Shown in pieces: positions 22,516 to 47,633 of a stretch of DNA of 64,000 nt. Source of the stretch: an uncultured Clostridia bacterium (GTDB lineage Bacteria > Bacillota > Clostridia > TANB77 > CAG-508); contig CANQAH010000001.1 in the NCBI GenBank assembly GCA_947588885.1, forward strand, positions 6,114 to 70,113, given 5' to 3'. Position 1 is the stretch's first letter, and every line of letters begins with the position of its first letter. The translations under genes and the position numbers were made by a program. Under the pieces are notes generated by a model, which was not told the DNA's origin, did not search any database, and worked only from the letters and a program-made list of their open reading frames with translations.

Positions 22516-23610
22516 ATGAAAAAAGAAAAAGGGTTTTCACTAATAAGATTTATATTGATGATATTTTTACTTATAATTATTTTTGGATTTGTAGGAGGAT
22601 TTGTATGGTATAGTTCTGCTATAAAACCATTACAAACTAATAGTGAAAAAGTTGTAGTAGATATTAAAAGTGGAAGCGGAATATCAGGTATAGCAGATTT
22701 ACTAGAAGCAAATAATGTAATAAAAGATGCAACTGCATTTAAAATATATTGTAAATTGAATGATGCTACATCAATGCAAGCTGGAAAATATGAATTAGAT
22801 AAAAATATGTCTGTAGAGCAGATTGTAACTGAATTAAAAAATGGAAATGTTGTTGATGAAACAGTAAAAATAACTTTTATCGAAGGAAAAAACATGAGAT
22901 GGATAGCTTCTACAATTGCATCAGCTACAGATAATACAGAAGAAGATGTTTTTAATTTATTACAAGACGAAGAATATATTAATTCAGTGATTGAAAAATA
23001 TTGGTTTGTTACAGATGATATAAAAAATAGTGAAATTTATTATCCTTTAGAAGGATATTTGTTTCCAGACACATATATTTTATCTGATAAATCAGAAAGT
23101 GTTGAAACAATTTTTGGAAAAATGCTTGATAGAATGGAAGAGGTTTTAGAACCATTGCAGAGAGATATACAAAATAGTGATTATTCGATTCATGAAATTT
23201 TGTCTTTTGCATCAGTTGTTGAACTTGAGGCTGGAAAAGATAATAGAGCTGAAGTTGCAGGCGTTTTTTATAATAGATTAAATAGAAATATGGGTATGCA
23301 AAGTGATGTAACAACATATTATGCACTTAAACTAGATTTAGATGAAAGAGAATTAACTAGAAGAGAAATTGCAAGTGAAAATCCATATAACACAAGTTGC
23401 TCATCAATGGCTGGAAAATTACCAATTGGGCCTATAGCAATGGTGGATAGAACATCAATTAATGCAGTGTTGCATCCTAAAGAGACAGATGCATTATTCT
23501 TTGTTGCAGATAAAGATGGTAACATATATTTCTCTAGAACAAATGAAGAACATGAACAAATTGTACAAGAGCTTAAAGATAGAGGTTTATGGTACACATA
23601 TGATGAATAA
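22516..23610 (+). CDS. mltG: Endolytic murein transglycosylase MltG (YceG-like)
   Basis: N-terminal TM helix. LEGYLFPDTY, VASIVE-like SVVELEAG and YNTSCSSMAGKLPIGPI motifs. ATG at 22516. Confidence 0.85.
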   Translation: MKKEKGFSLIRFILMIFLLIIIFGFVGGFVWYSSAIKPLQTNSEKVVVDIKSGSGISGIADLLEANNVIKDATAFKIYCKLNDATSMQAGKYELDKNMSVEQIVTELKNGNVVDETVKITFIEGKNMRWIASTIASATDNTEEDVFNLLQDEEYINSVIEKYWFVTDDIKNSEIYYPLEGYLFPDTYILSDKSESVETIFGKMLDRMEEVLEPLQRDIQNSDYSIHEILSFASVVELEAGKDNRAEVAGVFYNRLNRNMGMQSDVTTYYALKLDLDERELTRREIASENPYNTSCSSMAGKLPIGPIAMVDRTSINAVLHPKETDALFFVADKDGNIYFSRTNEEHEQIVQELKDRGLWYTYDE

Positions 23611-23613
23611 AAC

Positions 23614-23642
23614 TTGACAAATATGGAAAAACTGTTTAAAAT
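23614..23642 (+). promoter_or_regulatory. Promoter of the aspS2 T-box leader
   Basis: TTGACA-N17-TAAAAT. Confidence 0.6.
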
Positions 23643-23662
23643 AAATATATTATTGTGAAATA

Positions 23663-23866
23663 TTCGAGCGATGAAAATGCAAAGTAATTGTGACAGAAAA
23701 TCTAGAAGAGAAGAATTACCATAGGCTGAGAGTAATTCAGATTGAAACAATTATGAAACACATTGGAGCTAGTTTTTAAAGTGGGATTTTATCCAATTTG
23801 GGTGGTACCGCGGAAGTAGTTAGTTGAGAGCTTTCGTCCCTTTAGGGCGATGGCTCTTTTGTTTTA
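23663..23866 (+). promoter_or_regulatory. T-box riboswitch leader with apparent AAC (Asn) specifier
   Basis: T-box sequence aatttGGGTGGTACCGCGg at 23795-23813. Terminator gagagc...gctctttt at 23826-23866. Stem I 3-prime side ...atgaAACAcattggagc aligns with ...ggatGGAActttggagc of the Gly T-box at 40.8 kb. Confidence 0.8.
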
Positions 23867-23871
23867 CGTGG

Positions 23872-24285
23872 TTGAAAAAATAATCATCATTCTACGTCGT
23901 TAAATTGCAATCAAAAATCCTCAACGTACTTGTGTACGCCTCCGGTATTTTGATTACAATTTGCCTAGTACAATAATAATTATTTTTTCAACGGCGAAAG
24001 AGTTGAAGAAATGATTTTTTTTCCGACAAGACTAAGCTTGAAAATAATCATCATTCTAGGTTGCTAAATTATAATTAAAATTCTCAACGTACTTGTGTAC
24101 GCTTCCGGTATTTTGATTGTAATTTGCCTAGTATATTAATGATTCTTTTTCCAACTAGTGGGCTTGAAAAAATAATCATCATTCTACGTCGTTAAATTAC
24201 AATCAAAAATCCTCAACGTACTTGTGTACGCTTCCGGTATTTTGATTGCAATTTGCCTAGTATAATAATAATTCTTTTTTCAAGC
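23872..24285 (+). repeat. Family A long-hairpin tandem array (3 units, spacing 166 and 126 bp) lying between the T-box terminator and the aspS2 start
   Basis: Units start with ttgaaaaaataatcatcattcta at 23872, 24038 and 24164. Each has an inner stem aaattgcaatcaaaaat / attttgattgcaattt around the core cctcaacgtacttgtgtacgc(c/t)tccggt, followed by tttgcctagta. Confidence 0.9.
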
Positions 24286-24346
24286 ATGAATTGAGAAGAA
24301 GTAATATTACGTATAAATTATTTTATAACGCAGAAAGGAGAAAAAA

Positions 24347-26101
24347 ATGTATAGAACTTATACTTGTAATGAAATAAGAGAAAAAAATGTTGGTGAGCAT
24401 ATTAAACTTGCTGGATGGGTCCAAACAATAAGAGATTTAGGAGGAGTTCTTTTTGTTGATTTAAGAGATCAATATGGAATTACTCAAGTTGTTGCTTCAG
24501 GAAATGAAGAACTAGTTGATAAAATATCAAGAATTCCTGTTGAATCTACAATTTCTGTTGAAGGAACTGTAAGATTAAGAGATCAAGAAACTGTAAATGA
24601 AAAACTTGATACTGGTTTAGTTGAATTATTTGTCGAAAAAGTTGAAATATTAGGAAAAAGAACAAAACCATTACCTTTTGAAATAGAATCAAGTAGAGAT
24701 GTTAGAGAAGATTTAAGATTGCAATATAGATTTCTAGATTTAAGAAATGAGAAACTAAAAAATAATTTAATCTTAAGATCAAAAGTTATCCAATTTATGA
24801 GAGAACAAATGGTAAAAAAAGACTTTTTAGAAGTTCAAACACCTATACTTACAAGTTCATCTCCAGAGGGAGCTAGAGATTATTTAGTGCCAAGTAGAAT
24901 TTATCCAGGAAAATTTTATGCACTTCCACAAGCACCACAACAATTTAAACAATTGCTAATGGTTTCTGGAATAGATAAATATTTCCAAATAGCACCTTGC
25001 TTTAGAGATGAAGATGCAAGAGCTGATAGAACACCTGGAGAATTTTATCAGTTAGATATGGAAATGTCTTTTGCAACACAAGATGATGTTTTATCAGTTA
25101 TGGAAGAAGTAATTTATAATGTATTCAAAAAATTTTCAAATAAAAAAATTGCAAAATATCCATTTCCTAGGATACCATATAAAGAATCAATGCTTAAATA
25201 CGGCACAGATAAACCAGATTTAAGAAATCCATTAGTTATTTGTGATGTTACTGATATATTTGAAAAAGTTGATTTAAAAGTATTTAATGGAAAGCAAGTA
25301 AGAATTATATCTGTTCCAAATGGAGCAAGTGCATCAAGAACCTTATTTGAAGGAATGACAGATTTTGCAATTAATGAATGTAAAGCAAAGGGATTAGCTT
25401 GGCTTAAAGTAAATGAAGATAGAACGCTGCAAGGACCAATAGCAAAATTTATTGATGATGAGTCTAGAGAGGCAATGTTAAAAAAGGCAGGAACAAATGC
25501 AGGTGATGCAATATTTTTTGTTGCAGAACATGAACCAATAGCTTCTAAACTTGCAGGACAGATAAGAGAAGAACTTGGAAAAAGAATGGAATTAATTGAT
25601 GATTCAACTTATCAATTTTGCTGGATAGTTGATTTTCCAATGTTTGAAAGAGCAGATAATGGAAAAATAGAATTTTCACATAATCCATTTTCAATGCCAC
25701 AAGGTGGAATGGAAGCTTTAGAAAATGAAGAACCTTTAGACATTTTAGCATATCAATATGATATTGTTGGAAATGGTATAGAACTTGCATCAGGTGCAGT
25801 AAGGAACCATTCACCAGAGATAATGATTAAAGCATTTGAAATTGCTGGATATCAAGAAGATGAAATATATAAAAAGTTTTCAGCACTTTATAATGCATTC
25901 CATTATGGTGCACCACCACATGCTGGTATTGCACCAGGTATTGATAGAATTATAATGCTTCTTGCAGAGGAAGAAACAATTAGAGAAGTTCAAGCATTCC
26001 CAATGAATGCAAAGGCTCAAGATGTGTTAATGGGAGCACCATCAAATGTTTCTCAAAAGCAGTTAGATGAAATTCATATAAAAATAGATGAGAAAAAATA
26101 A
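24347..26101 (+). CDS. aspS: Aspartate--tRNA ligase, paralog 2 (T-box controlled; candidate non-discriminating enzyme)
   Basis: 584 aa, collinear with paralog 1 and by eye roughly 60% identical to it. Motifs FRDEDARADRTPGEFYQLD and GIAPGIDR. RBS AAGGAG. Confidence 0.93.
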   Translation: MYRTYTCNEIREKNVGEHIKLAGWVQTIRDLGGVLFVDLRDQYGITQVVASGNEELVDKISRIPVESTISVEGTVRLRDQETVNEKLDTGLVELFVEKVEILGKRTKPLPFEIESSRDVREDLRLQYRFLDLRNEKLKNNLILRSKVIQFMREQMVKKDFLEVQTPILTSSSPEGARDYLVPSRIYPGKFYALPQAPQQFKQLLMVSGIDKYFQIAPCFRDEDARADRTPGEFYQLDMEMSFATQDDVLSVMEEVIYNVFKKFSNKKIAKYPFPRIPYKESMLKYGTDKPDLRNPLVICDVTDIFEKVDLKVFNGKQVRIISVPNGASASRTLFEGMTDFAINECKAKGLAWLKVNEDRTLQGPIAKFIDDESREAMLKKAGTNAGDAIFFVAEHEPIASKLAGQIREELGKRMELIDDSTYQFCWIVDFPMFERADNGKIEFSHNPFSMPQGGMEALENEEPLDILAYQYDIVGNGIELASGAVRNHSPEIMIKAFEIAGYQEDEIYKKFSALYNAFHYGAPPHAGIAPGIDRIIMLLAEEETIREVQAFPMNAKAQDVLMGAPSNVSQKQLDEIHIKIDEKK

Positions 26102-27094: not shown

Positions 27095-27178
27095 AAATAC
27101 TATTATATTTGCGTTACTAAAAGATAGTAGTATTTTTAAAATCTAATAAAAATTTTACTCTAGAAAGGGATGAGTGTT

Positions 27179-27658
27179 ATGGAGGAAAATAAAGAAATAC
27201 TATTGACACAAGAAGGGTATGATAACCTAGAAAAAGAGTTAGAATATTTAAAAACAGAAAAAAGAACAGAGATTGCAGAGAGAATTAAGGTTGCTTTAGG
27301 ATTTGGAGATTTATCAGAGAACTCTGAATATGATGAGGCAAAAAGTGCACAGGCAGCTAATGAAAATAAAATAGCAGAATTAGAAAATAAAATTAGATTT
27401 GCCAGAATTATTGATGAATCAGAAATTGATACTAAAACAGTACAAGTTGGAAATATTGTTACTATTCATGATGAAGAATTCGATGAAGATTTAGTATATA
27501 CAATAGTTGGATCAACTGAGGTTGATTTAGCTCAGAATAAAATTTCAAATGAATCTCCAATGGGAATAGCTTTATTAGGAGCAAAGAAAGGGCAAATTGT
27601 TGAGGTTGAGGCACCAGATGGGGTTATGAGATATAAAATTTTAGCTATTAAAAAATAA
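27179..27658 (+). CDS. greA: Transcription elongation factor GreA
   Basis: LTQEGYDNLEKELEYLK...SENSEYDEAK coiled coil plus a C-terminal FKBP-like domain ISNESPMGIALLG. The ATG at 27179 has better RBS spacing than the one at 27170. Confidence 0.9.
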   Translation: MEENKEILLTQEGYDNLEKELEYLKTEKRTEIAERIKVALGFGDLSENSEYDEAKSAQAANENKIAELENKIRFARIIDESEIDTKTVQVGNIVTIHDEEFDEDLVYTIVGSTEVDLAQNKISNESPMGIALLGAKKGQIVEVEAPDGVMRYKILAIKK

Positions 27659-27920
27659 TGTGTATTATAAAGAATTCAAATATTATTTATTTGGATTCTT
27701 TTTTTTACTCTGTCTTTTGCACATAATAAATATATTTTTTTTTCCTTGTGGTAACACTTCAAACAAGTTTTTATATTCTAAGAGTTACAAGCAATAAAAA
27801 AGAAGGAAATTTTAGGGTGATAAACTATAAATATTACACAAAGTAAGAATGATTTTTTTCTGACGCGAAGCGACCAAACGAAACGAAGTGTAGTGCGATT
27901 ACGAGCAACTCTTCAGACTA

Positions 27921-28083
27921 GCCTTTATATAATAGAAAAGTGCTACGCATTTTCTATTATATAAAGGCTTCGCTCAAATTGCACACAAATTTTTTAACAA
28001 AAATTTGGCGCATAGAACAAAAATGCGGACAATTTAGAATAATTTTTCCTTTTGCAGATTATATATTGTCCGCTTTTGTTCTT
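27921..28083 (+). repeat. Family B repeat, complete copy, nested inside a larger inverted repeat (27837-27860 / 28111-28133)
   Basis: M1 gcctttatataatagaaaagtgctacgcattttctattatataaaggc. M2 cacacaaattttttaacaaaaatttggcg. M3 gaacaaaaatgcggac...gtccgcttttgttc. Confidence 0.88.
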
Positions 28084-28299
28084 AATCTGAGAGTTGCGAC
28101 CCACAAGGAAGAAAAAAATATTCTTACTTTGTGTAAACATATATTATTAAAAAAATTATAATGAAAAATGCTTTGAAAAAATAGCGACAAAACTAGATAA
28201 ATCAATATTTGTAGACGCTATAAAAAACTATTGAAAGCTAAAAATATTTGTGATAGAATAACGTCGGTCGAATAAATTACAATAATATAGGAGGTAATT

Positions 28300-28992
28300 A
28301 TGATTTATACACAAGAACTAGAAAATATGTGCAAAGTAGCAAAAGGAGTTGATCATGGACCAGCACCAATACCAGAAGAAGGAAAATGGGTAAAAGCAAA
28401 AGATATAAAAGATATTTCAGGATTTACACATGGTATTGGATGGTGTGCACCACAACAAGGAGCTTGCAAACTTACACTTAATGTAAAAGATGGAATAATT
28501 CAAGAAGCATTAGTTGAAACAATTGGATGTTCAGGTATGACTCATTCAGCAGCTATGGCTGGAGAAATTTTAGTTGGAAAGACAATATTAGAAGCATTAA
28601 ATACAGACTTAGTTTGTGATGCTATTAACACTGCAATGAGAGAACTATTTTTACAAATTGTTTATGGTAGATCTCAATCTGCATTTTCTGAAGGAGGATT
28701 AGCAGTTGGAGCAGGACTTGAAGATCTTGGAAAAGGTCACACAAGTCAAGTAGGAACAATTTACTCTAGCTTAGAAAAAGGACCAAGATATTTAAATTTA
28801 GCAGAAGGATATATTGTTGAAATTGGATTAGATAAAGATGACCAAATTATAGGTTATAAATATGTTCATATGGGAAAAATGATGGATTCAATTAAAAAAG
28901 GTGTTGATCCAATGGAGGCTATCGAAAAAGCTTCAGGAACTTATGGAAGATTTGACGAAGCTGTTAAAAAGATAGACCCACGTAAACAATAA
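28300..28992 (+). CDS. IscU/NifU-N-like Fe-S scaffold-type protein (usual partner of the GGGtGRT protein)
   Basis: GWCAPQQGACKL...ETIGCSGMTHSAAM resembles the IscU cysteine pattern. AGGAGG RBS. Confidence 0.6.
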   Translation: MIYTQELENMCKVAKGVDHGPAPIPEEGKWVKAKDIKDISGFTHGIGWCAPQQGACKLTLNVKDGIIQEALVETIGCSGMTHSAAMAGEILVGKTILEALNTDLVCDAINTAMRELFLQIVYGRSQSAFSEGGLAVGAGLEDLGKGHTSQVGTIYSSLEKGPRYLNLAEGYIVEIGLDKDDQIIGYKYVHMGKMMDSIKKGVDPMEAIEKASGTYGRFDEAVKKIDPRKQ

Positions 28993-29026
28993 AAATAGAA
29001 GAATTTAATGAAAAGGAGAGATATAA

Positions 29027-30028
29027 ATGGCAGTTACATTTGAAAGTTATGAAAGAAGAATAGATCAAATTAAACCTGTAATGGAAAAGTATGGCATAAA
29101 AGATTTTGAAGACGCTTTAGAAATATGTAAATCAAAAGGATTTAACCCATATGATATGGTAAAAGGAGTACAACCAATATGCTTTGAAAATGCTTGCTGG
29201 GCATATACATTAGGTGCAGCAATAGCAGTTAAAAAAGGTTGTACAAAAGCTGCCGATGCAGCAAAAGCTATTGGAGAAGGATTACAAGCATTTTGTATTC
29301 CAGGTTCAGTTGCAGACGATAGAAAAGTTGGATTAGGACATGGAAACTTAGCTTCAATGCTATTATCAGAAGAAACTAAATGTTTTGCATTCTTAGCAGG
29401 ACATGAGTCTTTTGCAGCAGCAGAAGGAGCTATAGGAATTGCTAAATCAGCTAATAAAGTTAGAAAAGAACCATTGAGAGTTATATTAAATGGTTTAGGA
29501 AAAGATGCAGCACAAGTAATCTCTAGAATTAATGGATTTACATATGTAAAAACTGAATTTGATTTCTTTACAGGAAAAGTAAAAGTTGTTGAAGAAATTC
29601 CATATTCAGATGGAGAGAGATCAAAAGTTAGATGTTATGGTGCAAATGATGTTAGAGAAGGTGTTGCAATAATGTGGATGGAAGATGTTGATGTTTCTAT
29701 TACTGGAAATTCAACTAACCCTACAAGATTCCAACATCCTGTTGCAGGAACATATAAGAAAGAAAGAATTGAAGCAGGAAAGAAATACTTCTCTGTTGCT
29801 TCTGGTGGAGGAACAGGAAGAACATTACATCCAGACAATATGGCTGCTGGACCAGCTTCATATGGTATGACAGATACAATGGGAAGAATGCATTCAGATG
29901 CACAATTTGCAGGATCTTCATCAGTACCAGCTCATGTTGAAATGATGGGATTAATTGGAATGGGAAATAACCCTATGGTAGGTGCTACTGTTGCAGTTGC
30001 AGTTGCTGTAGAAGAAGCTATGAAATAA
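29027..30028 (+). CDS. GGGtGRT-family protein (function unknown)
   Basis: Contains the eponymous motif SGGGTGRTLHPDN. 333 aa. RBS AAGGAGAG. Confidence 0.8.
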   Translation: MAVTFESYERRIDQIKPVMEKYGIKDFEDALEICKSKGFNPYDMVKGVQPICFENACWAYTLGAAIAVKKGCTKAADAAKAIGEGLQAFCIPGSVADDRKVGLGHGNLASMLLSEETKCFAFLAGHESFAAAEGAIGIAKSANKVRKEPLRVILNGLGKDAAQVISRINGFTYVKTEFDFFTGKVKVVEEIPYSDGERSKVRCYGANDVREGVAIMWMEDVDVSITGNSTNPTRFQHPVAGTYKKERIEAGKKYFSVASGGGTGRTLHPDNMAAGPASYGMTDTMGRMHSDAQFAGSSSVPAHVEMMGLIGMGNNPMVGATVAVAVAVEEAMK

Positions 30029-30068
30029 TTTACAGATAGAAAGTAGAAGCATGTATGTGCTTCTATTT

Positions 30069-30225
30069 TTTTATATAAATAGGAAAGTTCTACGAATTTC
30101 TTATAATATAAAGACTTCGCCAAATTTGTACACAAATTTTTTAACAAAAATTTGGCACATAGAACAAAGACGCGGACAATTCAGGATATTTTTTTCTTTT
30201 GCTGATTATATATTGTCCGCTAATA
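30069..30225 (+). repeat. Family B repeat, complete copy
   Basis: tatataaataggaaagttctacgaatttcttataatataaag, then acacaaattttttaacaaaaatttggc, then gaacaaagacgcggac...gtccgc. Confidence 0.88.
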
Positions 30226-30281
30226 TTCACTGTAAATTAGCATTTATACTAATTTACAGTGAATATTTCTGTTAACATAAA

Positions 30282-30310
30282 TTGACTAATTTATATAAAA
30301 AGGGTATAAT
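30282..30310 (+). promoter_or_regulatory. Near-consensus sigma-A promoter of cassette A
   Basis: TTGACT-N17-TATAAT. The leader is ~89% identical over ~55 nt to the one at 31236-31290. Confidence 0.7.
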
Positions 30311-30342
30311 AGATAAACTACTATTTATAAGGAGGCAAAATT

Positions 30343-30801
30343 GTGGATAAATTTGGTTATTACCGGTATCGTCAAATGCTACAGCAATATGGCTTTGTAT
30401 GTTTCCCGACTAGAAAAGATTTGATCGAATTTTTTTCTATTCATGTATCGAATCTGTACCGGGATTGGATTAACAAGCAGGCATCGCGTGAAAGAGATAC
30501 TGAGCGCATACGCAAATGGGTTTCGCGGGAACTTTCTGAAGGAATTCTAGTAGAAGTGTATGTGAAAGAGTTCTTGGAACAGCATGTTGTACATCAAGAG
30601 GATGTACTGTATCGTATGTTGCCGAGGGTCATGAAAAGGATGCCTAACATGTTTAAGATGTACGTCGATCAGGAAAATAAGGAATTATATGAATTTGTCC
30701 TGAAGAGAATTGCCAAAGGCGATAATGCGGCAGATGTGTTTCCGGAAAATGTGAAATATCTTATCGAAGGAAATTGCAAGTTATCCGTAAGCACAACGTA
30801 A
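30343..30801 (+). CDS. Unknown-family 152-aa protein, paralog A of the GC-rich triplet
   Basis: GTG start 7 nt after AAGGAGG. 459 nt. Visibly higher GC with CCG/CGG/GCG codons. Shares YYRY, DLIEF, EFLE.HVVH..D.LYR, P.MFK, GD.AADVFP and IEG..KL with 31343..31801. Confidence 0.8.
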   Translation: MDKFGYYRYRQMLQQYGFVCFPTRKDLIEFFSIHVSNLYRDWINKQASRERDTERIRKWVSRELSEGILVEVYVKEFLEQHVVHQEDVLYRMLPRVMKRMPNMFKMYVDQENKELYEFVLKRIAKGDNAADVFPENVKYLIEGNCKLSVSTT

Positions 30802-30820
30802 TGCAGAATTTTCCACAAGA

Positions 30821-30852
30821 AAGAAACGTGTCATAGATGGCACGTTTCTTTT
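30821..30852 (+). terminator. Intrinsic terminator of cassette A
   Basis: gaaacgtgtc-atagatg-gcacgtttc followed by tttt. Confidence 0.75.
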
Positions 30853-31235
30853 ATAACTTCAAAGTAATCCACCAGCTATGCTGGGGAGTTGGAAAACTTA
30901 TAGTTTTGCACAAGATAAAAAATCCCACTCAAACATGATATAATATTTTAAGTTTGACGGCTTAAATATAAAATCATGAAAGGAGTGGTACGTATGAAAA
31001 GCCCATACATAAATATTTTAGCACACACAACATGGGAATGCAAGCATCATATAGTATTTGCACCAAAATTTAGAAGAAAAGAAATATATAGAACAATAAA
31101 AGTAGTAAGAGAAAAAAACGCAAGCGAAATAGTTGTAAGCTGTCAAACTGGGACGCTTAAGTGTCAGCAGTATCAAGGCCGTATAGAACAATATGAAAAT
31201 CTTCTACTTACTGGGATAATTATAGAATAGATAAG
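30853..31235 (+). mobile_element. IS200/IS605-family remnant (internally deleted)
   Basis: Subterminal hairpin ccaccagc-tat-gctgggg at ~30868-30886, plus a truncated tnpA reading frame. Confidence 0.55.
30994..31230 (+). pseudogene. tnpA: Truncated IS200-type Y1 transposase (tnpA). Only the first ~37 residues are recognisable.
   Basis: MKSPYINILAHTTWECKHHIVFAPKFRRKEIY matches the IS200 TnpA N-terminus (LAHTKWNCKYHIVFAPKYRR). The HUH motif and catalytic Tyr regions are absent, and the remaining frame is unrelated. Confidence 0.65.
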
Positions 31236-31279
31236 TAGCATTTATGCTACTTTACAGTAAATATACCAGTTAACATAAA

Positions 31280-31308
31280 TTGACTAATTTTTTTAAAAAA
31301 GATATAAT
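31280..31308 (+). promoter_or_regulatory. Near-consensus sigma-A promoter of cassette B
   Basis: TTGACT-N17-TATAAT. Confidence 0.7.
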
Positions 31309-31342
31309 AAAAGTATACTATTATTTATAAGGAGGTAAAAAT

Positions 31343-31801
31343 ATGAAAAGAAGCGATTATTATCGGTATTGCTCAACACTACGGGTCTCTGGAACTGTAG
31401 TTTTTCCGCACAGAAAGGACCTGATTGAATTTTTGTCTATGCACGTGTCGAAGCTTTATCAGGATTGGACGAATGATCAGATGTCTCTTGAAAGCGATCC
31501 GGCGATTAAGCGCGAATGGGCTGTACGTGAATGTACGGAGGGCAGACTAGCTGAGATTTATTCAAGTGAATTTCTGGAAGAGCATGTCGTGCATGAGAAT
31601 GATGCCTTGTATCGGTTGTCAACCAAAGCATTAAAGAGGGTACCGAAGATGTTTAAGGTTTTCATTGATATGAAGGATCATAAAGATTTATACGAATCAG
31701 TTCTAAGACGGATTGCCCAGGGCGATAAGGCTGCGGATGTGTTCCCGGATACCGAATATGTCATCGAAGGATTCAACAAACTTGTTGAAGTAAGTCCGTA
31801 A
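31343..31801 (+). CDS. Unknown-family 152-aa protein, paralog B of the GC-rich triplet
   Basis: ATG after AAGGAGG. 459 nt. Roughly 50-55% aa identity to paralog A by eye. The start lies exactly 1000 bp after the paralog A start. Confidence 0.8.
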   Translation: MKRSDYYRYCSTLRVSGTVVFPHRKDLIEFLSMHVSKLYQDWTNDQMSLESDPAIKREWAVRECTEGRLAEIYSSEFLEEHVVHENDALYRLSTKALKRVPKMFKVFIDMKDHKDLYESVLRRIAQGDKAADVFPDTEYVIEGFNKLVEVSP

Positions 31802-31837
31802 ATACAGAGAAACACAGAGCAGAGCTTTTCATAGGAA

Positions 31838-31868
31838 GGGACGCGCCAGAAATGGCGCGTTTCTTTTT
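31838..31868 (+). terminator. Intrinsic terminator of cassette B
   Basis: acgcgcca-gaaa-tggcgcgt followed by ttcttttt. It runs directly into the right half of a family B M3 module. Confidence 0.8.
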
Positions 31869-32212
31869 GTAGATTACATATTGTCTGCTATTGTTATATC
31901 ATAGGAAAGTGCTCCGCATTTTCTATTATATAAAGGCTTCGCCCCAATTGCACACAAATTTTTTAACAAAAATTTGGCGCTTAGAACAAAGACGCGGACA
32001 ATTCAGGATAATTTTTTCTTTTGCAGACTATATATTGTCCGCTATTGTTATATGATAGGAAAGTGCTCTGCATTTCTTATTATATAAAGGCTTCGCTACA
32101 AATCCACACAAAATTTCTAAAGAAATTTTGGCGGGCGAACAATTGACGCGGACTAAAAAAGGTTCTAAGTAGTAAAAATATTAATAATGTCCGCTATTGT
32201 TCTTAAAAAACT
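31869..32212 (+). repeat. Family B repeats: a partial M3 right arm plus two complete tandem copies
   Basis: gtagattacatattgtctgctattgtt, then two M1-M2-M3 units carrying the two alternative M2 variants (aaattttttaacaaaaattt and aaaatttctaaagaaatttt). Confidence 0.9.
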
Positions 32213-32214
32213 AG

Positions 32215-32244
32215 TTGACATAAAGTAAGAAAATTGGTTATAAT
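32215..32244 (+). promoter_or_regulatory. Near-consensus sigma-A promoter of cassette C
   Basis: TTGACA-N18-TATAAT. Confidence 0.65.
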
Positions 32245-32272
32245 TATATTATTATCAATAGGAGGTGGGAGA

Positions 32273-32731
32273 ATGAACAATTTGGGTTATTACCGGTATT
32301 GCACAGAGTTAAAGGATAATGGAGCCGTTATTTTTAGATCTCGCAATGAATTAATTCAGTTTGTTGTAAAAATGATTTGTAACGAATATGAAGGATTTAT
32401 TGATTTTTGCGAGAAATCTACGGAAAACCCGGAAGAAATCGAAGAGCTGGAATTTCAAAGGGAAAATGATCGCATTTTAATTGAAATCTACGCTGAATCG
32501 TATCTTGAGGAGTCTGTTGTAAAAGAAGACGATCGGCTTTATAAAGTTATGAGAGCGCTGCATAAGGTTCCGAAAATGTTTTGCGTACAAGTCGATACGA
32601 TGAATAGGGGGATTTATAATTTTATTTTAGAACAGCTTAACCACGGCGATGCACCAGGAGTGATATTTCCAATTAATATCAGATATGTCATTGAAGGACA
32701 TCTGAAATTAAAGAGGGAAGTAATATTTTAG
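32273..32731 (+). CDS. Unknown-family 152-aa protein, paralog C of the GC-rich triplet (most divergent)
   Basis: ATG at 32273 after AGGAGGTGGG. 459 nt. Retains YYRY, ELIQF, SYLEESVVKEDDRLYK, VPKMF, GDAPGVIFP and VIEGHLKL. Confidence 0.78.
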   Translation: MNNLGYYRYCTELKDNGAVIFRSRNELIQFVVKMICNEYEGFIDFCEKSTENPEEIEELEFQRENDRILIEIYAESYLEESVVKEDDRLYKVMRALHKVPKMFCVQVDTMNRGIYNFILEQLNHGDAPGVIFPINIRYVIEGHLKLKREVIF

Positions 32732-32767
32732 AAGTAATATTCTGATGGAAAATTGTTCATGACAGGA

Positions 32768-32798
32768 GGGGCATACTAGAAATAGTATGTCCCTTTTG
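32768..32798 (+). terminator. Intrinsic terminator of cassette C
   Basis: gggcatacta-gaaa-tagtatgtccc followed by ttttg. Confidence 0.75.
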
Positions 32799-32799
32799 C

Positions 32800-32853
32800 G
32801 ATATTATAGAAAGTTCAGAGAACTTTCTATAATATAAAAGCTTTGTTTCAAAC
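32800..32853 (+). repeat. Family B fragment (M1 plus the start of M2)
   Basis: atattatagaaagttcagagaactttctataatataaaagctttg. Confidence 0.65.
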
Positions 32854-32960
32854 CTAATTTAATAATTTGCAATTGTTCTAGTTGCTATTATTGAACTTTT
32901 GGAATATAATACTAATGATTTTTATATGGGGAATGAAAATGATATATAGAAGGAGGTTAT

Positions 32961-35546
32961 ATGTTACAGTTAAAAGGTATAACTAAAAATTATTTATCAG
33001 GTGAAATGACTGTAAAGGCCTTAAAAGGAATAGATATAGAATTTAGAAAAAGTGAATTTGTATCTATTTTAGGACCAAGTGGTTGTGGAAAAACAACACT
33101 ATTAAATATTATAGGTGGATTGGACAGATATACTGATGGAGACTTAATAATAAATGGAAAATCAACAAAATTATTTAAAGACAAAGATTGGGATGCATAT
33201 AGAAATTATTCTGTTGGTTTTGTTTTCCAAAATTATAATTTAATACCACATCAAACTGTCTTAGCAAACGTTGAACTAGCACTTACTCTATCTGGTGTTA
33301 GTAGAAAAGAAAGAAAAAAGAGAGCGATTAAGGCTTTAGATGATGTAGGTTTAAAAGATCAAATTCATAAAAAGCCAAATCAATTATCTGGTGGACAAAT
33401 GCAAAGGGTTGCAATTGCAAGAGCTTTAGTAAATGATCCAGATATTATATTAGCAGATGAACCAACTGGTGCACTTGATACAGAAACTAGTGTACAAATA
33501 ATGGAAATATTAAAGAAAATATCAAAAAATAAGTTAATTGTAATGGTTACACACAATCCTGATTTAGCGGAAAAATATTCTTCAAGGTTAATAAAAGCTT
33601 TAGATGGAAAAGTTATTAGTGATTCAAATCCATACACAGAAGAAGACAGAAAAAAAGAGAAAAATTTAAAGGCTAAAACTGGAAAAACATCAATGAATTT
33701 CTTTACAGCTTTATCATTAAGTTTAAACAATTTAATGACTAAAAAAGGTAGAACATTTTTAACTGCTTTTGCTGGAAGTATAGGTATTATTGGTATAGCT
33801 TTAATACTTTCATTGTCAAATGGTGTGCAAAAATATATTGATAAGGTTCAAGAAGATACGCTTTCAAATTATCCTCTTACAATTCAAGAAGAAAGTGTAG
33901 ACGCTGCATCAATGATGGAATTATTTATGGATCAGCAAGAAAAAGAATATAATGATGATCAAATTCATTCTAGACAAATGATAGGCGAAGTTTTTGATAC
34001 TATTTCTAAAAAGGTTCAGAGGAATAACTTAACAGATTTCAAAAAATATATTGAAGAAACTGATAATGATGTAAAAAAATATTCTAATGCTGTTCAATAT
34101 GGATATAATATTACTCTAAATATTTATAAGGATGATACTGAAAATGGGGTTGTTCAAGTTAATCCAGCTACTACTTTTGAAAAATTAGGAATGGCAACTT
34201 CATCAGACTCTTCTTCATATGTGATGGGACAATCAATGGATGTATGGCAAGAAATGCTAGATAATCAAGAATTATTAGAATCTCAATATGATGTATTAGC
34301 TGGAAATTGGCCTCAAAATTATAATGAAGTAGTAATATCAGTTAATAAAAATAATGAAGTAAGTGATTATACATTATATTCATTAGGAATTAAAGATCAG
34401 GCTGAGATAACTGAAAAGATGCATAAAATAATGAATGATGAAGAATTAGAAGAACTTGAAGATGAAACATATACATATGATGATTTTATAGGATTAAAGT
34501 ATAGAATTCTTTTGAATACTGATTATTATGAAAAACAAGGAGATATGTGGTTTAGCAGAAAGAATGATGAAGCATATTTGAAAGAAAAAATTGCTAATGC
34601 AGAAGAAATAAAAATTGTTGGTGTAATTAGACCTAAAGAAGAAGCTGCAGCAACTTCAATGAGTGGTATGGGAATTGTAGGATATAAAAAAGAACTTACA
34701 GAACATATTATTAATAAAATCAATGAAACAGAAATTGCAAAAGAACAGTTAGCTAATCCTGAGATAAATGTATTTACTGGTAAAAAATTTTCAGATGCAA
34801 GTTCAAATTCATCAGCTGGGTTTGATTATTCAAAACTTACACCAGAACAACAAGCTTCTATGGCTAATTTAAGTAAAGAAGAACTTGCTGGGGTAATAGC
34901 TTCATACACAGAAATGGCTGATGCAACGCTTGATGATAATTTATTAACTTTAGGAATTTGTGACTTAGATTCACCAGCATCAATTAATATATATCCAATT
35001 GATTTTGAAAGTAAAGATAAAATAACAGATGATATTGAAAGATATAATCAATCAAAAAGAGATGAAGGAAAAGAAGAAGATGTAATTCAATATACTGATA
35101 TGGTTGCAACAATGATGACTTCTGTTACTGTAATTGTAAACATGATTAGTTATGTACTTATAGCTTTTGTTGGTATTTCTTTAGTAGTTTCTTCAATAAT
35201 GATTGGAATAATAACATATATTTCAGTTCTTGAAAGAATCAAAGAAATTGGTGTATTGCGTAGTATAGGTGCTTCTAAGAAAGATATATCAAGAGTATTT
35301 AATGCGGAAACATTTATTATTGGATTTGTTGCTGGACTTATAGGAATTGGTGTAACATTATTACTTAATATTCCAATAAATGTGATTATAAAAAATGTAG
35401 CTGATGTTTCTAACTTATCAAAATTACCACTAGTTGGTGCAATTGTACTTATTTTAATAAGTATGATATTAACAATGATTGCTGGATTAATACCTGCAAA
35501 AGTTGCAAGTAAAAAAGATCCGGTTGAAGCTTTAAGAACAGAATAA
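32961..35546 (+). CDS. Fused ABC transporter: N-terminal ATPase plus MacB/FtsX-type permease with a large extracytoplasmic domain
   Basis: Walker A GPSGCGKTT, signature LSGGQMQR, Walker B ILADEPT. TM1 at ~aa 265, a ~430-aa loop, then three C-terminal TM helices of FtsX type. Confidence 0.85.
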   Translation: MLQLKGITKNYLSGEMTVKALKGIDIEFRKSEFVSILGPSGCGKTTLLNIIGGLDRYTDGDLIINGKSTKLFKDKDWDAYRNYSVGFVFQNYNLIPHQTVLANVELALTLSGVSRKERKKRAIKALDDVGLKDQIHKKPNQLSGGQMQRVAIARALVNDPDIILADEPTGALDTETSVQIMEILKKISKNKLIVMVTHNPDLAEKYSSRLIKALDGKVISDSNPYTEEDRKKEKNLKAKTGKTSMNFFTALSLSLNNLMTKKGRTFLTAFAGSIGIIGIALILSLSNGVQKYIDKVQEDTLSNYPLTIQEESVDAASMMELFMDQQEKEYNDDQIHSRQMIGEVFDTISKKVQRNNLTDFKKYIEETDNDVKKYSNAVQYGYNITLNIYKDDTENGVVQVNPATTFEKLGMATSSDSSSYVMGQSMDVWQEMLDNQELLESQYDVLAGNWPQNYNEVVISVNKNNEVSDYTLYSLGIKDQAEITEKMHKIMNDEELEELEDETYTYDDFIGLKYRILLNTDYYEKQGDMWFSRKNDEAYLKEKIANAEEIKIVGVIRPKEEAAATSMSGMGIVGYKKELTEHIINKINETEIAKEQLANPEINVFTGKKFSDASSNSSAGFDYSKLTPEQQASMANLSKEELAGVIASYTEMADATLDDNLLTLGICDLDSPASINIYPIDFESKDKITDDIERYNQSKRDEGKEEDVIQYTDMVATMMTSVTVIVNMISYVLIAFVGISLVVSSIMIGIITYISVLERIKEIGVLRSIGASKKDISRVFNAETFIIGFVAGLIGIGVTLLLNIPINVIIKNVADVSNLSKLPLVGAIVLILISMILTMIAGLIPAKVASKKDPVEALRTE

Positions 35547-35627: not shown

Positions 35628-35735
35628 CTAGAAGTATTAGTTCTGCAAGTTCGTGGTTTAGAGAACAACTGAATTGCTGATTGAAAAAATATAAATCAGT
35701 TCAATTGAGTGAACTTGCAGAATTAATACTTCTAG
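35628..35735. repeat. ~108-bp long inverted repeat between convergent genes
   Basis: The arms ctagaagtattagttctgcaagttc (35628-35652) and gaacttgcagaattaatacttctag (35711-35735) are complementary with one mismatch. The right arm overlaps the stop of the minus-strand gene. Confidence 0.8.
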
Positions 35736-36364
35736 TATATAGCAATAAAAGCTTTAATAACTGTTTGTATGTTAATTTCTTCTGTAGTCCCGTAAACAAT
35801 CTTCTTAAAGAAGTCTGAACTCGTATTACACATTTCATCTATAGCTGTATAAATATTCCAATATACACTAAATATATTTATGTCATATTTATTAGAAATG
35901 AAAGTAAATAGATCTCTTTTACGAAGATTAATATTTTCAGCATCATAAATATAAGCTAAGCAATCTAAAATAAATCTAGTTCCAATTAGATTAGGATTGA
36001 AATGCATCCATTCTAAAACTTTGATAGCGTGAATTTTAAAGTTATATATATTTACTCTTTTACTATATCGTGTTTCTCTAGAAAAAATTTTTAGTAAATT
36101 ACATATTTTTTTAATGGATAATTCTGGAATTTGTGATATAGTTATAGTAATATAATTAAAGTCAAGGAAATGACGTAATATTATGTCCGAGGTTCTAGAA
36201 GTTATTATTACATTTGGTTTTTTCGTTTTGCAAAGTCTAATAACATCTTTTGAAAGTTTACTTGAAAAACCAACCAAAGTGACATTATTACATGATAATA
36301 AAATTGAATTACACAAATTTGATGTATAATCTAAATCATTGCAACAAACAAAAAAACTAATCAT
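35732..36364 (-). CDS. Pseudo-receiver plus Spo0A_C-like DNA-binding domain regulator
   Basis: The C-terminal half (LIGTRFILDCLAYIY...FISNKYDINIFSVYWNIYTAIDE...) follows the Spo0A C-terminal HTH pattern (recalled). The N-terminal half is receiver-shaped but lacks an obvious acceptor Asp (PNVIITSRTSD). Confidence 0.5.
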   Translation of the reverse strand: MISFFVCCNDLDYTSNLCNSILLSCNNVTLVGFSSKLSKDVIRLCKTKKPNVIITSRTSDIILRHFLDFNYITITISQIPELSIKKICNLLKIFSRETRYSKRVNIYNFKIHAIKVLEWMHFNPNLIGTRFILDCLAYIYDAENINLRKRDLFTFISNKYDINIFSVYWNIYTAIDEMCNTSSDFFKKIVYGTTEEINIQTVIKAFIAIY

Positions 36365-36459: not shown

Positions 36460-37899
36460 TTGAACGGAGAAATATTAGTAGAAAAATTAAAAGCTATTGA
36501 TGATAAAACTTTTGAAGAAATTTATAAGCAATATTATGAAAAAGTTAAATCCTATGTGACTTCTAAGATTGGCAATGATAATAATATTGAAGATTTAGTA
36601 CAAGAAGTATTTATAAGAGTTTATAAATATTTGGATAGTTATGATAGTAGCAAAGGTAATTTTTATAATTTCATTTTACTTAATGCAAATAATGTAATAA
36701 TTGATTATGTGAGAAAGAAGAAGGTAAGAGAAAATAGAAATTCTGATTGTGACATTGAAACAATTAAAGATGATGATTTCGACTTAGAAGAAATTGGAGA
36801 ACATGCAGAAGAAAAACAAATTTTGAAATCTATAATGGATGAGTTACCAGATACATATAAAGAAATTATAGAATTAATTTATATTAAGGATTTATCAAAT
36901 AAAGCTGCAGCTAATATTATGGGAAAAAATGTTGTAAGTTTCAAATCTACTTTGTACAGAGCTAGAAAGGAATTGAAAAAGAAACTATTTGAAAAATATC
37001 CTGAAATGCGCGATACTTCAATGAAACATACATTAAAGATTATTTTAGTATTAATTTCATCAGTATGCTTATTGAGTGGATTAGTATATGCAACGATTAC
37101 ACTTTATAGAAATGTGTTTATAGGTAATAAATATACGATTTCTGAATTAAATGAAGATATTCCAGAAGAAATGGCTATTGTATCTAGAGAGGATGCAACT
37201 AAGAAGATAAATGATTATTTAGTTGTTCTAGGACATGATGGAAATGTTAACCAAGATGATTTACATTTAATCAGAGATTATCAATTAAGAAAAATTTGTT
37301 GGACTATAAAGAATGAAAAATATTTAATGAGAATTGATGCTGAAAATAATACACTTATTGATTATACTGATTTAGATTTAGAAAATTCAGAAATTAATAA
37401 AGAAAAATTTAAAGAAATATATACTAAATTAGAATTACCTACAGATTATGAGGTTTGTGAAAGCGATAAGAATGGTGATGTAGAAAATATTAAATTAGCA
37501 AAGAAATATGGAGATATTTATAATTATTATGAGAGTGTGACGTTAGCGTTTATTGAAGGTAAATTAAGTTCAATAGTATGTAATAGTTATAATTATGTTG
37601 ATAAAGAAATTTTAATTTCTAAAGAAGAAGCCAAAAATATATTTATAGAAAATGGAGTAAATGCAGATGATATTTATCTAACAATTAAAGAAGTTGATGA
37701 TTTTAGTTATGAAACAGGATCGAATTTAATTGAGGAAATAGATAAAGGTAATTTTGAAATAACAGAAATAGAAAATTTAAAGCCTGATATCAGAAAAGTA
37801 TGGAAAACAGTAGTTAATGATAAAATTTATTTTGTTGATAGTAATACTGGTGAATTTATTAATGGGCTTACAAAATCAATAAGAAATAAGAACAGCTAG
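36460..37899 (+). CDS. Sigma-70/ECF-like factor fused via a single TM helix to an extracytoplasmic tandem PepSY-like domain
   Basis: Region 2 EDLVQEVFIRVYKYL...NNVIIDYVRKK. Region 4 ELPDTYKEIIELIYIKDLSNKAAANIMGKNVVSFKSTLYRARKEL. TM helix LKIILVLISSVCLLSGLVYATITLY. TTG start after AGAGGA. Confidence 0.75.
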   Translation: MNGEILVEKLKAIDDKTFEEIYKQYYEKVKSYVTSKIGNDNNIEDLVQEVFIRVYKYLDSYDSSKGNFYNFILLNANNVIIDYVRKKKVRENRNSDCDIETIKDDDFDLEEIGEHAEEKQILKSIMDELPDTYKEIIELIYIKDLSNKAAANIMGKNVVSFKSTLYRARKELKKKLFEKYPEMRDTSMKHTLKIILVLISSVCLLSGLVYATITLYRNVFIGNKYTISELNEDIPEEMAIVSREDATKKINDYLVVLGHDGNVNQDDLHLIRDYQLRKICWTIKNEKYLMRIDAENNTLIDYTDLDLENSEINKEKFKEIYTKLELPTDYEVCESDKNGDVENIKLAKKYGDIYNYYESVTLAFIEGKLSSIVCNSYNYVDKEILISKEEAKNIFIENGVNADDIYLTIKEVDDFSYETGSNLIEEIDKGNFEITEIENLKPDIRKVWKTVVNDKIYFVDSNTGEFINGLTKSIRNKNS

Positions 37900-39547: not shown

Positions 39548-39984
39548 TGTGAATAACTATGTCGAAAAATATCGATGAAATAGGTTATTAACAAAGTTAT
39601 CCACATTATCCACAATGAACAAATGTGAATGGAAAATATTACAAATAGTTTACGTAAAAGATAAAGATGCTGAAATTACTAGTGTTTGAACGATATACTT
39701 CTGTAATGAGTGTTGAATTTTGTTTGAAATATCAACAGTTGCCCAAATTATCCACAGATCATTTTAAAGAATTATTTCAATACAAAACGAGATTGGTTGA
39801 ATAATTGGCCAAATATTGCAAGAAAAATATTGGTATGATAAAATTTAAATGCATATAATTTGTAGATTGAATTTATGTTCACGAATTGAATTGTAGAACT
39901 AGTTTTATTAGTTATTGTATGCAGTAGAGGATCAATTCGATTCTCTACTAAATTTTTTATTATGGTGAAAACAAATGTGGATAA
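39548..39984. promoter_or_regulatory. DnaA-box cluster: four perfect TTATCCACA boxes plus one 1-mismatch box
   Basis: TTATCCACA at 39597-39605 and 39606-39614 (abutting) and at 39748-39756. Reverse-complement TGTGGATAA at 39976-39984. TGTGAATAA at 39548-39556. The region 39434-39974 has no ORF of 60 aa or more. Confidence 0.7.
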
Positions 39985-45710: not shown

Positions 45711-45715
45711 ATTCC

Positions 45716-46220: not shown

Positions 46221-46274
46221 AAGCTACTAGAAGATTAGAAAAGAAAATAGGTATAAAATAGATTTATAAAATAG

Positions 46275-47567
<1,293 letters not shown>

Positions 47568-47633
47568 TTAAATCAAAATGTATAATATTAAATGTGACTT
47601 ATTTGAAAATATACCAAATTTGGTGATTAAAAT

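Follow-up and report, generated by a model that had tools for sequence, protein, structure and literature searches.

Three tandem genes of one protein family

We analyzed a 64,000-nucleotide (nt) stretch of contig CANQAH010000001.1 from an uncultured Clostridia bacterium, hereafter the window. Near its middle, between a gene for a GGGtGRT protein and a gene for a fused ATP-binding cassette (ABC) ATPase/FtsX-type permease, lie three open reading frames (ORFs) on the forward strand. We refer to these ORFs as A, B, and C, and to the protein family that they represent as X (Table 1). Our analysis indicates that X is very probably a vertically inherited, clade-restricted gene that has stayed at one locus and expanded there in tandem, with a base composition and codon usage unlike those of its host.

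Exactly 1000 bp separate the start codons of A and B. At the protein level, A and B are 55% identical and A and C 34% (33-55% over the window copies), with 40 invariant columns in the three-way alignment that include YYRY, LI.F, VV, P.MF, GD, FP, and IEG..KL motifs. The coding DNA of A and B is 68% identical, with nonsynonymous (dN) and synonymous (dS) distances of 0.34 and about 2, respectively. An earlier note on this DNA, made from the sequence alone, had described three ORFs of 459 nt and 152 amino acids (aa) with a common motif skeleton, A and B being about half identical and C more distant; it had also placed the starts of A and B 1000 bp apart and seen the paralogs as strongly diverged and GC-richer than their surroundings. 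All of these observations held up, the last with computed GC contents of 0.394 for A, 0.427 for B, and 0.349 for C, against 0.278 for the window. The array is well past chance expectation, and the ORFs form a genuine protein family, with hidden Markov model (HMM) E values of 1e-48 to 1e-79 and a predicted local distance difference test score (pLDDT) of 97 in AlphaFold2.

An exhaustive HMMER search of 1.84 billion cluster representatives yielded 36 X clusters, all 95-170 aa long and nearly all aligning end to end. Exhaustive searching was needed to recover the family: a word-indexed search of 5.8 billion proteins with the three paralogs returned only the paralogs themselves, and the same kind of search with a 35-member profile returned five proteins only. 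A, B, and C had no significant match in Pfam, NCBIfam, PHROGs, PADLOC, or the PDB sequences, in line with the earlier note, which had not recognized the family. Across the 35 aligned members, a Pfam scan gave no consistent family and PADLOC gave just scattered single matches (E >=0.005). Nothing was found in a pattern scan of GTDB representatives with the family, in JGI metagenomes scanned with the A1 profile, in 50,697 phage and 72,556 plasmid records searched by tblastn with B, or in an IMG/VR scan with one family member, P0018.

The conserved sites of X in alignment A2 are mostly aromatic or hydrophobic (Y6, F21, F30, Y39, L78, and F133), together with two Arg residues and one Gly-Asp pair; almost all are hydrophobic or aromatic core residues. 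The alignment held no catalytic-looking motif and no conserved His, Cys, or acidic triad. The isoelectric points (pI) of the 35 members range from 4.9 to 9.6 (median 7.7), and no member has a hydrophobic segment. X is a cytoplasmic protein of about 150 aa. AlphaFold2 run with 35 sequences, a check proposed in the earlier note, gave a confident model (pLDDT 97.1, predicted template modeling score 0.90) in which a helix, a short strand, two long helices, and a small alpha/beta part follow one another. Foldseek found no fold match for this model in the PDB (best E 1.6, template modeling score <=0.29) or in BFVD (best E 0.83). A previous AlphaFold2 model made from three sequences was poor (pLDDT 66.6), and its Foldseek matches were meaningless.

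X occupies one locus in its clade

Genomic contexts were read for 13 X clusters. Eleven lie between greA or the GGGtGRT gene and the ABC/FtsX gene, one lies beside a ROK gene, and one came without flanks. The ABC/FtsX gene directly follows X in all lineages read, with two exceptions: the contig of L088 stops after X, and no flanks were recovered for L100. An HMM scan of all fetched loci placed X at this position only. In the five lineages with long contigs (L091, L097, L102, L107, and L111), for which 20-kb loci were read, the ABC/FtsX protein is 78-88% identical over its full length. L091 (GCA_947625895.1) and L097 (GCA_947594845.1) are rabbit-gut contigs from metagenome-assembled genomes (MAGs), and they contain the whole block of the window: the genes for Band_7, YceG, AspRS, GreA, NifU-like, GGGtGRT, X, and ABC/FtsX proteins, followed by a Spo0A_C-like gene, a gene for an ECF sigma factor with a long extension, and the gene for GlyRS. 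L102, L107, and L111 (contigs of 128-325 kb) have the order greA-(107-aa gene)-X-ABC. In L086, greA directly precedes X, and the short contigs of L082-L085, L086, L098, and L101 have the same flanks as the window.

Copy number differs between these lineages, with one X gene in L097, L102, L107, and L111, two in L091, L082, and L086, and three in the window. C is 41-44% identical to the second genes of L091 and L082 (type 2), and A and B are 37-45% identical to their first genes (type 1). This positional orthology implies vertical descent from one ancestral gene, which then gave rise to two types; the duplication into A and B is private to the lineage of the window. X was not found within 10 kb of the GGGtGRT gene in the closest GGGtGRT-bearing representatives (L002-L081). 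In the more distant L018, whose ABC orthologue is 62% identical, three unrelated, apparently housekeeping ORFs of 174, 369, and 199 aa stand in place of X between the GGGtGRT and ABC genes (L018 1670-4395); by eye, the 369-aa product resembles an S-adenosylmethionine synthetase. Since this interval lacks X, the gene is confined to a narrower clade. The 107-aa gene between greA and X (L102 9596-9919, also in L103-L106) is of ordinary composition, with a GC content at third codon positions (GC3) of 0.14 and no CpG, and its presence means that insertions are tolerated between greA and X.

Within the block, X evolves fastest. Between the window and L091 or L097, its products are 28-43% identical, whereas those of the neighboring genes are 60-99.6% identical (GGGtGRT 98-99%, AspRS 93-95%, and ABC 86-88%). 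The NG86 dN/dS ratios of the unsaturated pairs were 0.16 for A/B, 0.16 for L091_1/L082_1, and 0.21 for L091_2/L082_2, so that the dN/dS check suggested in the earlier note gave no gene-wide positive selection. X is thus protein-coding and under purifying selection, yet fast-evolving. To estimate synonymous divergence, we compared codon identity at identical residues with its expectation from codon usage. The corrected distances of the flanks were about 1.0-1.3 between the window and L091 and 1.3-2.5 between the window and L097. Between L091 and L082, the two X genes gave 1.16 and 0.43, values that bracket the flank value of 0.66 and hence fit vertical co-divergence. Raw NG86 dS had suggested that X coalesces more deeply than the flanking genes, a reading that was rejected because the extreme codon bias of the flanks leads to underestimated flank dS. 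Near-identical strains showed no burst of variation in X (0-1.3% differences, flanks 0-0.4%), in a test that is weak because most comparisons had been selected for an identical protein. With no excess of short-term variation in this weak test and no reverse transcriptase gene in the syntenic block, a hypermutating or diversity-generating locus was rejected as well.

Some neighbors of X have features of their own. The divergent genes for the Spo0A_C-like protein (35732-36364, minus strand, 210 aa) and the ECF-type sigma factor, extended at its C terminus by about 300 aa (36460-37899, plus strand), just downstream of the ABC gene, evolve fastest in the block after X, with identities to L091/L097 of 61%/39% and 61%/48%, respectively; either product may be a partner of X or of the transporter. 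The nifU-like/GGGtGRT pair (28300-30028) is instead highly conserved, with 98-99.6% aa identity and a corrected synonymous distance to L091 of about 0.2, against about 1 for its neighbors. GGGtGRT proteins are 78-88% identical in MAGs of Collinsella, Treponema, Akkermansia, and even Methanobrevibacter. The pair stands between greA and X in one sub-lineage only (the window, L091, L097, and L098) and is absent from there in L102, L107, L111, and L086, which suggests a mobile, highly constrained two-gene module.

A compositional anomaly at a core locus

The GC excess of the X genes lies almost wholly at synonymous sites; GC contents at first and second codon positions are ordinary. GC3 is 0.42, 0.44, and 0.35 in A, B, and C, respectively. 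Of the 47 other ORFs of the window that were scored, 46 have values of 0.075-0.21, the sole exception being a receiver-like ORF (0.31). CpG occurs 4.4-5.5 times per 100 nt in X (observed/expected ratio [o/e] 1.3-1.6) and 0.1-1.3 times in the other ORFs (o/e 0.06-0.9). These values put the CpG density of X at about 10 times the background and its GC3 at 3-5 times. The codons CGG, CCG, CTG, GCG, TCG, and ACG account for 0-3% of their synonymous families in eight neighboring genes. They are common in X, where CCG encodes 10 of 13 Pro and CGG 9 of 34 Arg residues.

The same anomaly is found in relatives. X has a GC3 of 0.32-0.53 in L091, L097, L082, L098, L101, L102, L107, and L111, with neighbors at 0.06-0.24. 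In all lineages bar L088, the most divergent one, its GC3 is 0.32-0.62 and its CpG o/e about 1, compared with 0.06-0.24 and 0.1-0.5 in neighboring genes. The enrichment ends at the ORF boundaries, with AT-rich untranslated regions and promoters. GC3 is even along the ORF, and its states show no positional conservation (z 0.92 against synonymous permutations). The atypical composition reported in the earlier note is therefore real, and in GC3 and CpG stronger than had been noted. The foreign origin that it had read from this composition, in the form of an islet, did not stand: the anomaly recurs in relatives at the same locus, and the homologs are syntenic in a core context and single-copy in L097, L102, L107, and L111.

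We then asked how long the flanks retain a base composition. At the four-fold degenerate sites of eight flanking genes (729-899 sites, six genomes), GC is 0.04-0.07, and the probability that a site is G or C in one genome given that it is in another is 0.05-0.14, which corresponds to a compositional memory of at most 8% for any genome pair. By contrast, GC at the four-fold sites of X is 0.25-0.65. Because the flank sites have been randomized while those of X have stayed GC-rich, a relic of one old transfer is excluded. The composition of X is either maintained or continually re-imported.

Continual re-import would take the form of recurrent cassette replacement, in which X alleles arrive by recombination in the flanks from an unsampled reservoir of about 40-45% GC, which might be a phage, a plasmid, or a different lineage of Bacillota, and for that reason never ameliorate. 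Several observations agree with it. CCG, CGG, CTG, GCG, and ACG are common and CpG is undepleted, which gives X the look of a moderate-GC Bacillota gene; the host's compositional memory is too short for one old transfer; the alleles are very deeply different between genomes with 84-96% identical flanking DNA; and the greA-X interval has taken up the nifU-like/GGGtGRT pair in one lineage and the 107-aa gene in another. However, no X was found outside the clade among the 1.84 billion representatives, and 11 of the 13 contexts are at this locus. The positional orthology of types 1 and 2 has been kept, the synonymous distances of X between L091 and L082 match those of the flank, and the anomaly is equal in single- and multi-copy lineages. 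We consider such replacement unlikely.

A local neutral bias could also raise GC3 and CpG, through GC-biased gene conversion or repair at a hot spot or between the tandem copies. The enrichment is gene-wide rather than site-specific, several lineages do have tandem paralogs, and the greater identity of the A and B promoters (86%) than of their coding DNA (68%) could stem from conversion. Single-copy lineages share the high GC3 (0.34-0.44), though, and the enrichment respects ORF boundaries; X has no excess of short-term variation, by the weak test on strains chosen for protein identity, and codon 8 is under site-specific nucleotide selection (see below). Reported effects of GC-biased gene conversion in bacteria are moreover far smaller than a four-fold shift. 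This explanation is in our view very unlikely.

The genome stretch as a whole is strongly depleted in CpG, with o/e values of 0.06-0.5 in nearly all genes and GpC o/e values of 1.4-1.6. The AspRS gene (24347-26101), with only three CpG in 1755 nt, and the GGGtGRT gene (29027-30028) are examples. Patches rich in CpG are found only in X, in the receiver-like gene, and in five intergenic regions that carry repeats (1-500, 23600-24350, 27660-28300, 45711-46280, and 47568-47985). The receiver-like gene (11122-11508, plus strand) encodes a stand-alone protein of 128 aa (Response_reg 23 bits, below gathering). Its anomaly resembles that of X in a milder form (GC3 0.31, CpG o/e 1.06), and it has a GC-rich terminator of its own and fragments of a 156-nt repeat on its flanks. 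It could be another member of a class of genes with G/C-ending codons or a recent arrival.

An invariant CGG codon near the 5' end

All 10 non-redundant genes that have Arg in the N-terminal D-Y-Y-R-Y motif (codon 8) use CGG for it. Other conserved Arg columns (24 and 63) use AGA, AGG, and CGN codons in a mixture. Elsewhere in the family, about 15% of Arg codons are CGG, so the chance of 10 out of 10 is about 1e-8; in the eight neighboring genes, CGG accounts for about 0% of Arg codons. Codon 8 is thus under selection at the nucleotide level.

Codons 4-8 are able to form a hairpin of 3-5 bp with a UAUU loop. In a 16-gene alignment, 72.5% of cells were paired, against 58% in shuffles, and the covariation score was 0.362, against 0.151 (0 of 500 shuffles reached the observed value in either case); slid controls all scored <=0.155. 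The compensatory sets included GAT/TAT-C, GGT/TAC-C, GAG/TCT-C, GAC/TGT-C, and GTG/TCA-C. The helix had been drawn by eye from the same sequences that were used to test it, and RNAalifold did not predict it. We regard the hairpin as tentative, and a gating rare codon as an alternative explanation for the invariant CGG. ARAGORN found no tRNA in the window, and there was no Arg tRNA in the window or the clade loci.

Structural RNAs appear as GC-rich islands in AT-rich genomes, which raises the question of whether the GC-rich DNA of X specifies structured RNAs, either non-coding or with a dual function, in which the ORFs are incidental. Each unit does have its own promoter and terminator within about 540 nt, and codons 4-8 are conserved at the nucleotide level. 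The remaining evidence speaks for proteins: length, frame, and start are kept over 36 clusters, dN/dS is <0.25, the model has a pLDDT of 97, no Rfam family matched the ORFs, and the GC3 states lack positional conservation. In addition, the folding z-scores of ORFs A, B, and C (-0.87, -0.17, and -2.44, respectively) are not unusual, so that a large RNA structure is not the cause of the composition. An RNA in place of the protein is hardly conceivable on these data, but the 5' end of the ORF may contain a small regulatory element.

Expression signals and elements between the copies

The three best promoter-like matches in 29900-33100 are those preceding A, B, and C (Table 1). The ACATAAATTGAC motif that overlaps the -35 element of A and B is kept upstream of the type-1 genes in L091, L082, L097, L086, L107, and L111. 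Across 77 nt, the promoter regions of A and B share 86% identity, which bears out the earlier statement that the DNA around their -35 elements is more conserved than the coding DNA. Promoter scanning, the sequence itself, and folding z-scores likewise support its assignment of a promoter, a GGAGG ribosome-binding site (RBS), and a hairpin terminator to each ORF. In every lineage, each X copy is predicted to be transcribed separately, from a near-consensus sigma-A-type promoter of its own, and to have both a strong Shine-Dalgarno sequence and a strong intrinsic terminator.

Table 1. Coordinates of the X genes, their predicted expression signals, and adjoining features in the window.
Feature	Position	Strand	Description
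Upstream flank	27170-30028	+	greA (27170-27658), nifU-like (28300-28992), GGGtGRT (29027-30028); Pfam
156-nt repeat (family B, D1), upstream of A	30072-30227	+	83% to reference copy
Promoter of A	30275-30310	+	ACATAAATTGAC motif overlapping -35 TTGACT, 17-nt spacer, TATAAT; 11/12 consensus positions
RBS of A	30330-30335	+	AGGAGG, 7 nt 5' of GTG start
X gene copy A	30343-30801	+	459 nt/152 aa, GTG start, type 1; GC3 0.418, 22 CpG
Hairpin of A, codons 4-8 (tentative)	30353-30366	+	CGG codon 8 at 30364-30366
Intrinsic terminator of A	30819-30852	+	-19.4 kcal/mol, z -8.4, UAGA loop, then U-run
IS200-type remnant	30867-31230	+	5'-end RNA-like element and truncated tnpA ORF (30976-31230); Rfam, Pfam
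Promoter of B	31273-31308	+	ACATAAATTGAC motif, TTGACT, 17-nt spacer, TATAAT; 11/12 consensus positions
RBS of B	31330-31335	+	AGGAGG, 7 nt 5' of start
X gene copy B	31343-31801	+	459 nt/152 aa, type 1; GC3 0.438, 25 CpG
Hairpin of B (tentative)	31353-31366	+	CGG codon 8 at 31364-31366
Intrinsic terminator of B	31831-31870	+	-26.2 kcal/mol, z -8.0, GAAA loop, then U-run
Two adjacent D1 repeat copies, between B and C	31894-32203	+	31894-32049 and 32048-32203
Promoter of C	32215-32244	+	TTGACA, 18-nt spacer, TATAAT; 12/12 consensus positions
RBS of C	32260-32265	+	AGGAGG, 7 nt 5' of start
X gene copy C	32273-32731	+	459 nt/152 aa, type 2; GC3 0.346, 20 CpG
Hairpin of C (tentative)	32283-32296	+	CGG codon 8 at 32294-32296
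Intrinsic terminator of C	32763-32798	+	-24.0 kcal/mol, z -7.5, GAAA loop, then U-run
Downstream flank	32961-35546	+	Fused ABC ATPase/FtsX-type permease, 861 aa, own promoter; Pfam ABC_tran and FtsX

An IS200 tnpA remnant and family B repeats had been reported to separate the cassettes; the searches recovered the repeats and, with matches below threshold, an IS200-type remnant. The region 30867-30986 matched Rfam STnc490 (IS200 5'-end RNA) over the full model length, below the gathering threshold (41.1 bits versus 56, E 1.3e-5), and the truncated tnpA ORF matched Y1_Tnp weakly (13.9 bits, E 0.062) with residues 19-52, covering the first 35 profile positions only. The remnant was not found at this locus in any relative compared. 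The window contains 17 copies, full or partial, of the 156-nt intergenic repeat, among them 27925-28080, 47674-47931, and 49805-49960; the matching spacers in L091, L082, and L097 lack it. The repeat contains CpG and internal inverted repeats and is similar in kind to miniature inverted-repeat transposable elements or repetitive extragenic palindromic elements. In L091 and L082, the spacers between the X genes consist of a terminator and a promoter in just 132-137 nt, from which it follows that the IS200 fragment and the repeats are later insertions in the lineage of the window only.

A perfect hairpin with a 13-bp stem (CACTGTAAATTAG...CTAATTTACAGTG) lies at 30227-30260, about 25 nt upstream of the -35 element of A, and a related, shorter palindrome at 31233-31252 upstream of B. 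Both surfaced as spurious miRNA-like Rfam matches and as terminator-like sites on the minus strand; they may serve as operators or bidirectional terminators or represent the ends of repeats. Elsewhere in the window, a 228-aa ORF (39975-40661, plus strand) has a weak match to Thg1 (tRNA-His guanylyltransferase; 26.6 bits, just below gathering), which would be unusual for such a bacterium.

Immunity and anti-defense functions

The earlier note had proposed that the three genes form an orphan immunity array or anti-defense/anti-restriction cassettes in an acquired islet, in which case each copy would neutralize a different toxin or defense. The tandem, strongly diverged paralogs with a strong promoter each, the variation from one to three copies between relatives, the fast evolution of X within its neighborhood, its atypical composition, and the mobile-element debris between the window copies are all what such an array would lead one to expect. 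However, X resides at the same syntenic housekeeping locus in all lineages, is single-copy in four, and has dN/dS values of 0.15-0.2 without gene-wide positive selection, and the debris is private to the window. In the five long-contig lineages, the 10 kb to each side of X held no toxin, T7SS (type VII secretion system), Rhs, CDI (contact-dependent inhibition), phage, or integrase gene, and no toxin, secretion, phage, or integrative element adjoined X in the 13 clusters read.

Similarity searches pointed the same way, with no match to a Pfam immunity family, a PADLOC model, or a PHROG at a significant E value. X was not found in the phage and plasmid collections searched, which speaks against an ArdA-, Ocr-, or Acr-like anti-defense protein, and P0018 had no IMG/VR match. 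The pI is not consistently acidic, and its median of 7.7 does not agree with the acidity of ArdA/Ocr DNA mimics. The proposal was thus not upheld, and, weakened by the synteny, it now seems to us quite unlikely; the fast evolution and variable copy number leave some room for an immunity-like or conflict-related function, for which there is no positive evidence.

A proposed history and function of X

Taking these results together, we favor an account of X that combines a history and a function and that, as a whole, we believe to be probably right, with substantial room for error. Its historical part, concerning identity and descent, can be held with high confidence. In a clade of small-genome, uncultured gut Clostridia of about 28% GC, X has resided downstream of greA and directly upstream of the MacB-like ABC/FtsX gene and, in particular lineages, has been duplicated in tandem, first to two copies and then to three. 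The functional part is tentative and may well prove wrong. X would be an abundant, non-enzymatic binding or regulatory protein, its surface would co-evolve quickly with a lineage-specific partner, and duplicates would be retained through divergence in specificity. Selection would act on the nucleotide or codon composition of the X mRNA, through its stability or its mode of translation.

Several points weigh against this account. The role as a binding protein is suggested solely by the absence of catalytic-looking residues and by surface variability, and the abundance of X is read from sequence signals only. The nifU-like and GGGtGRT genes, whose synonymous sites are strongly constrained too, prefer A/T-ending codons, and ordinary translational selection therefore fails to explain the direction of the bias in X. 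The codon usage of X resembles that of a Bacillota genome of 40-45% GC, with the usage of Bacillus subtilis as the point of comparison, and so has the look of a transferred gene. Finally, GTDB representatives with a 94-96% identical GGGtGRT protein have no X near that gene, in a comparison confined to its surroundings.

A more specific form of selection is that X is held compositionally "foreign", its mRNA being kept rich in G/C-ending and CpG-containing codons that other genes shun, and that the CGG at codon 8 acts as a gate, which would uncouple translation or mRNA survival from the AT-rich transcriptome. Uncoupling would come about, for example, by the use of rarely used tRNAs or by resistance to AU-directed RNases or anticodon nucleases in stress or phage attack. 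We hold this to be improbable, but, if true, it would make X a bacterial single-gene counterpart of a rare-codon switch, on a protein with a previously unseen fold.

Atypical GC content and codon usage are a standard signature of horizontal gene transfer (HGT), yet X carries this signature at a core position throughout a clade with saturated neutral sites, which points to active maintenance of the signature. To our knowledge, no core-syntenic gene that permanently looks foreign has been described. If selection is the cause, X would offer a tractable case of strong synonymous selection against both mutation pressure and the ordinary direction of codon bias, with a bearing on mRNA stability, rare-codon control, and methods for detecting HGT. 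X, apparently highly expressed in uncultured gut Clostridia, is also a cheap target for structure determination and partner identification.

Comparison with known systems

X is without a known match in sequence, fold (PDB, BFVD), context, or behavior. The protein that came closest in sequence was YqgQ-like/DUF910 (PF06014; PDB 2nn4), the B. subtilis member of which is about 70 aa long and of unknown function and which, among the weak matches of X, ranked first against Pfam as well as against the PDB sequences. Over the N-terminal 45-60 residues of X, the two can be aligned, both proteins have the order helix, short strand, long helix, and their common motif V-x-F-x-x-R-E-x-x-I-E-F-(8)-Y comprises the most conserved residues of X. 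The scores were all below threshold: PF06014 matched A with 12.3 bits (gathering 25, E 0.19) and 1 of 35 members, profile A2 matched 2nn4 with the core motif aligned (E 0.32), and hhalign of X against a shallow Bacillus alignment of YqgQ gave P 0.0016 and a probability of 16%. 2nn4 was not among the Foldseek matches in the PDB, and the kinship could not be brought to significance. X differs from YqgQ in its double length, its extra long helix and C-terminal alpha/beta part, its taxon, and its genomic context. GlcK is a ROK-family enzyme, and the most divergent X member (L088) adjoins a ROK gene, on an equally low-GC contig. In B. subtilis, yqgQ is part of the yqgP-yqgQ-glcK operon with the glucokinase gene glcK (PMC8767453). 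Even if real, the link to YqgQ explains nothing yet, YqgQ itself having no known function.

Orphan immunity arrays (T7SS LXG, Rhs, and CDI) resemble X in their tandem, diverged, small cytoplasmic paralogs, variable copy number, and fast evolution. X differs from them in its fixed core locus, its monocistronic genes with a consensus promoter each, and its lack of nearby toxin or secretion genes and of immunity-family similarity. With acquired islets, X shares a GC3, CpG content, and codon usage unlike those of the host, and insertion-sequence and repeat debris adjoins the window copies. By contrast, the X locus is syntenic, with the same anomaly in the sampled relatives despite saturation at neutral sites, no integrase, att, or tRNA site is found at X, and the debris is lineage-private. 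Measured as a genomic island, X has the atypical composition, but its placement does not vary among the lineages with recovered flanks, the truncated IS200 is the only trace of mobility, and its composition has not ameliorated toward that of the host.

The bldA/TTA-codon regulon of Streptomyces consists of genes gated by a rare codon. X differs in that the whole gene is shifted in composition, not one codon; the small hairpin could equally explain the invariant codon. The likeness lies in a genome-rare codon, CGG, that is invariant near the 5' end of X, in a gene that is rich in other rare G/C-ending codons.

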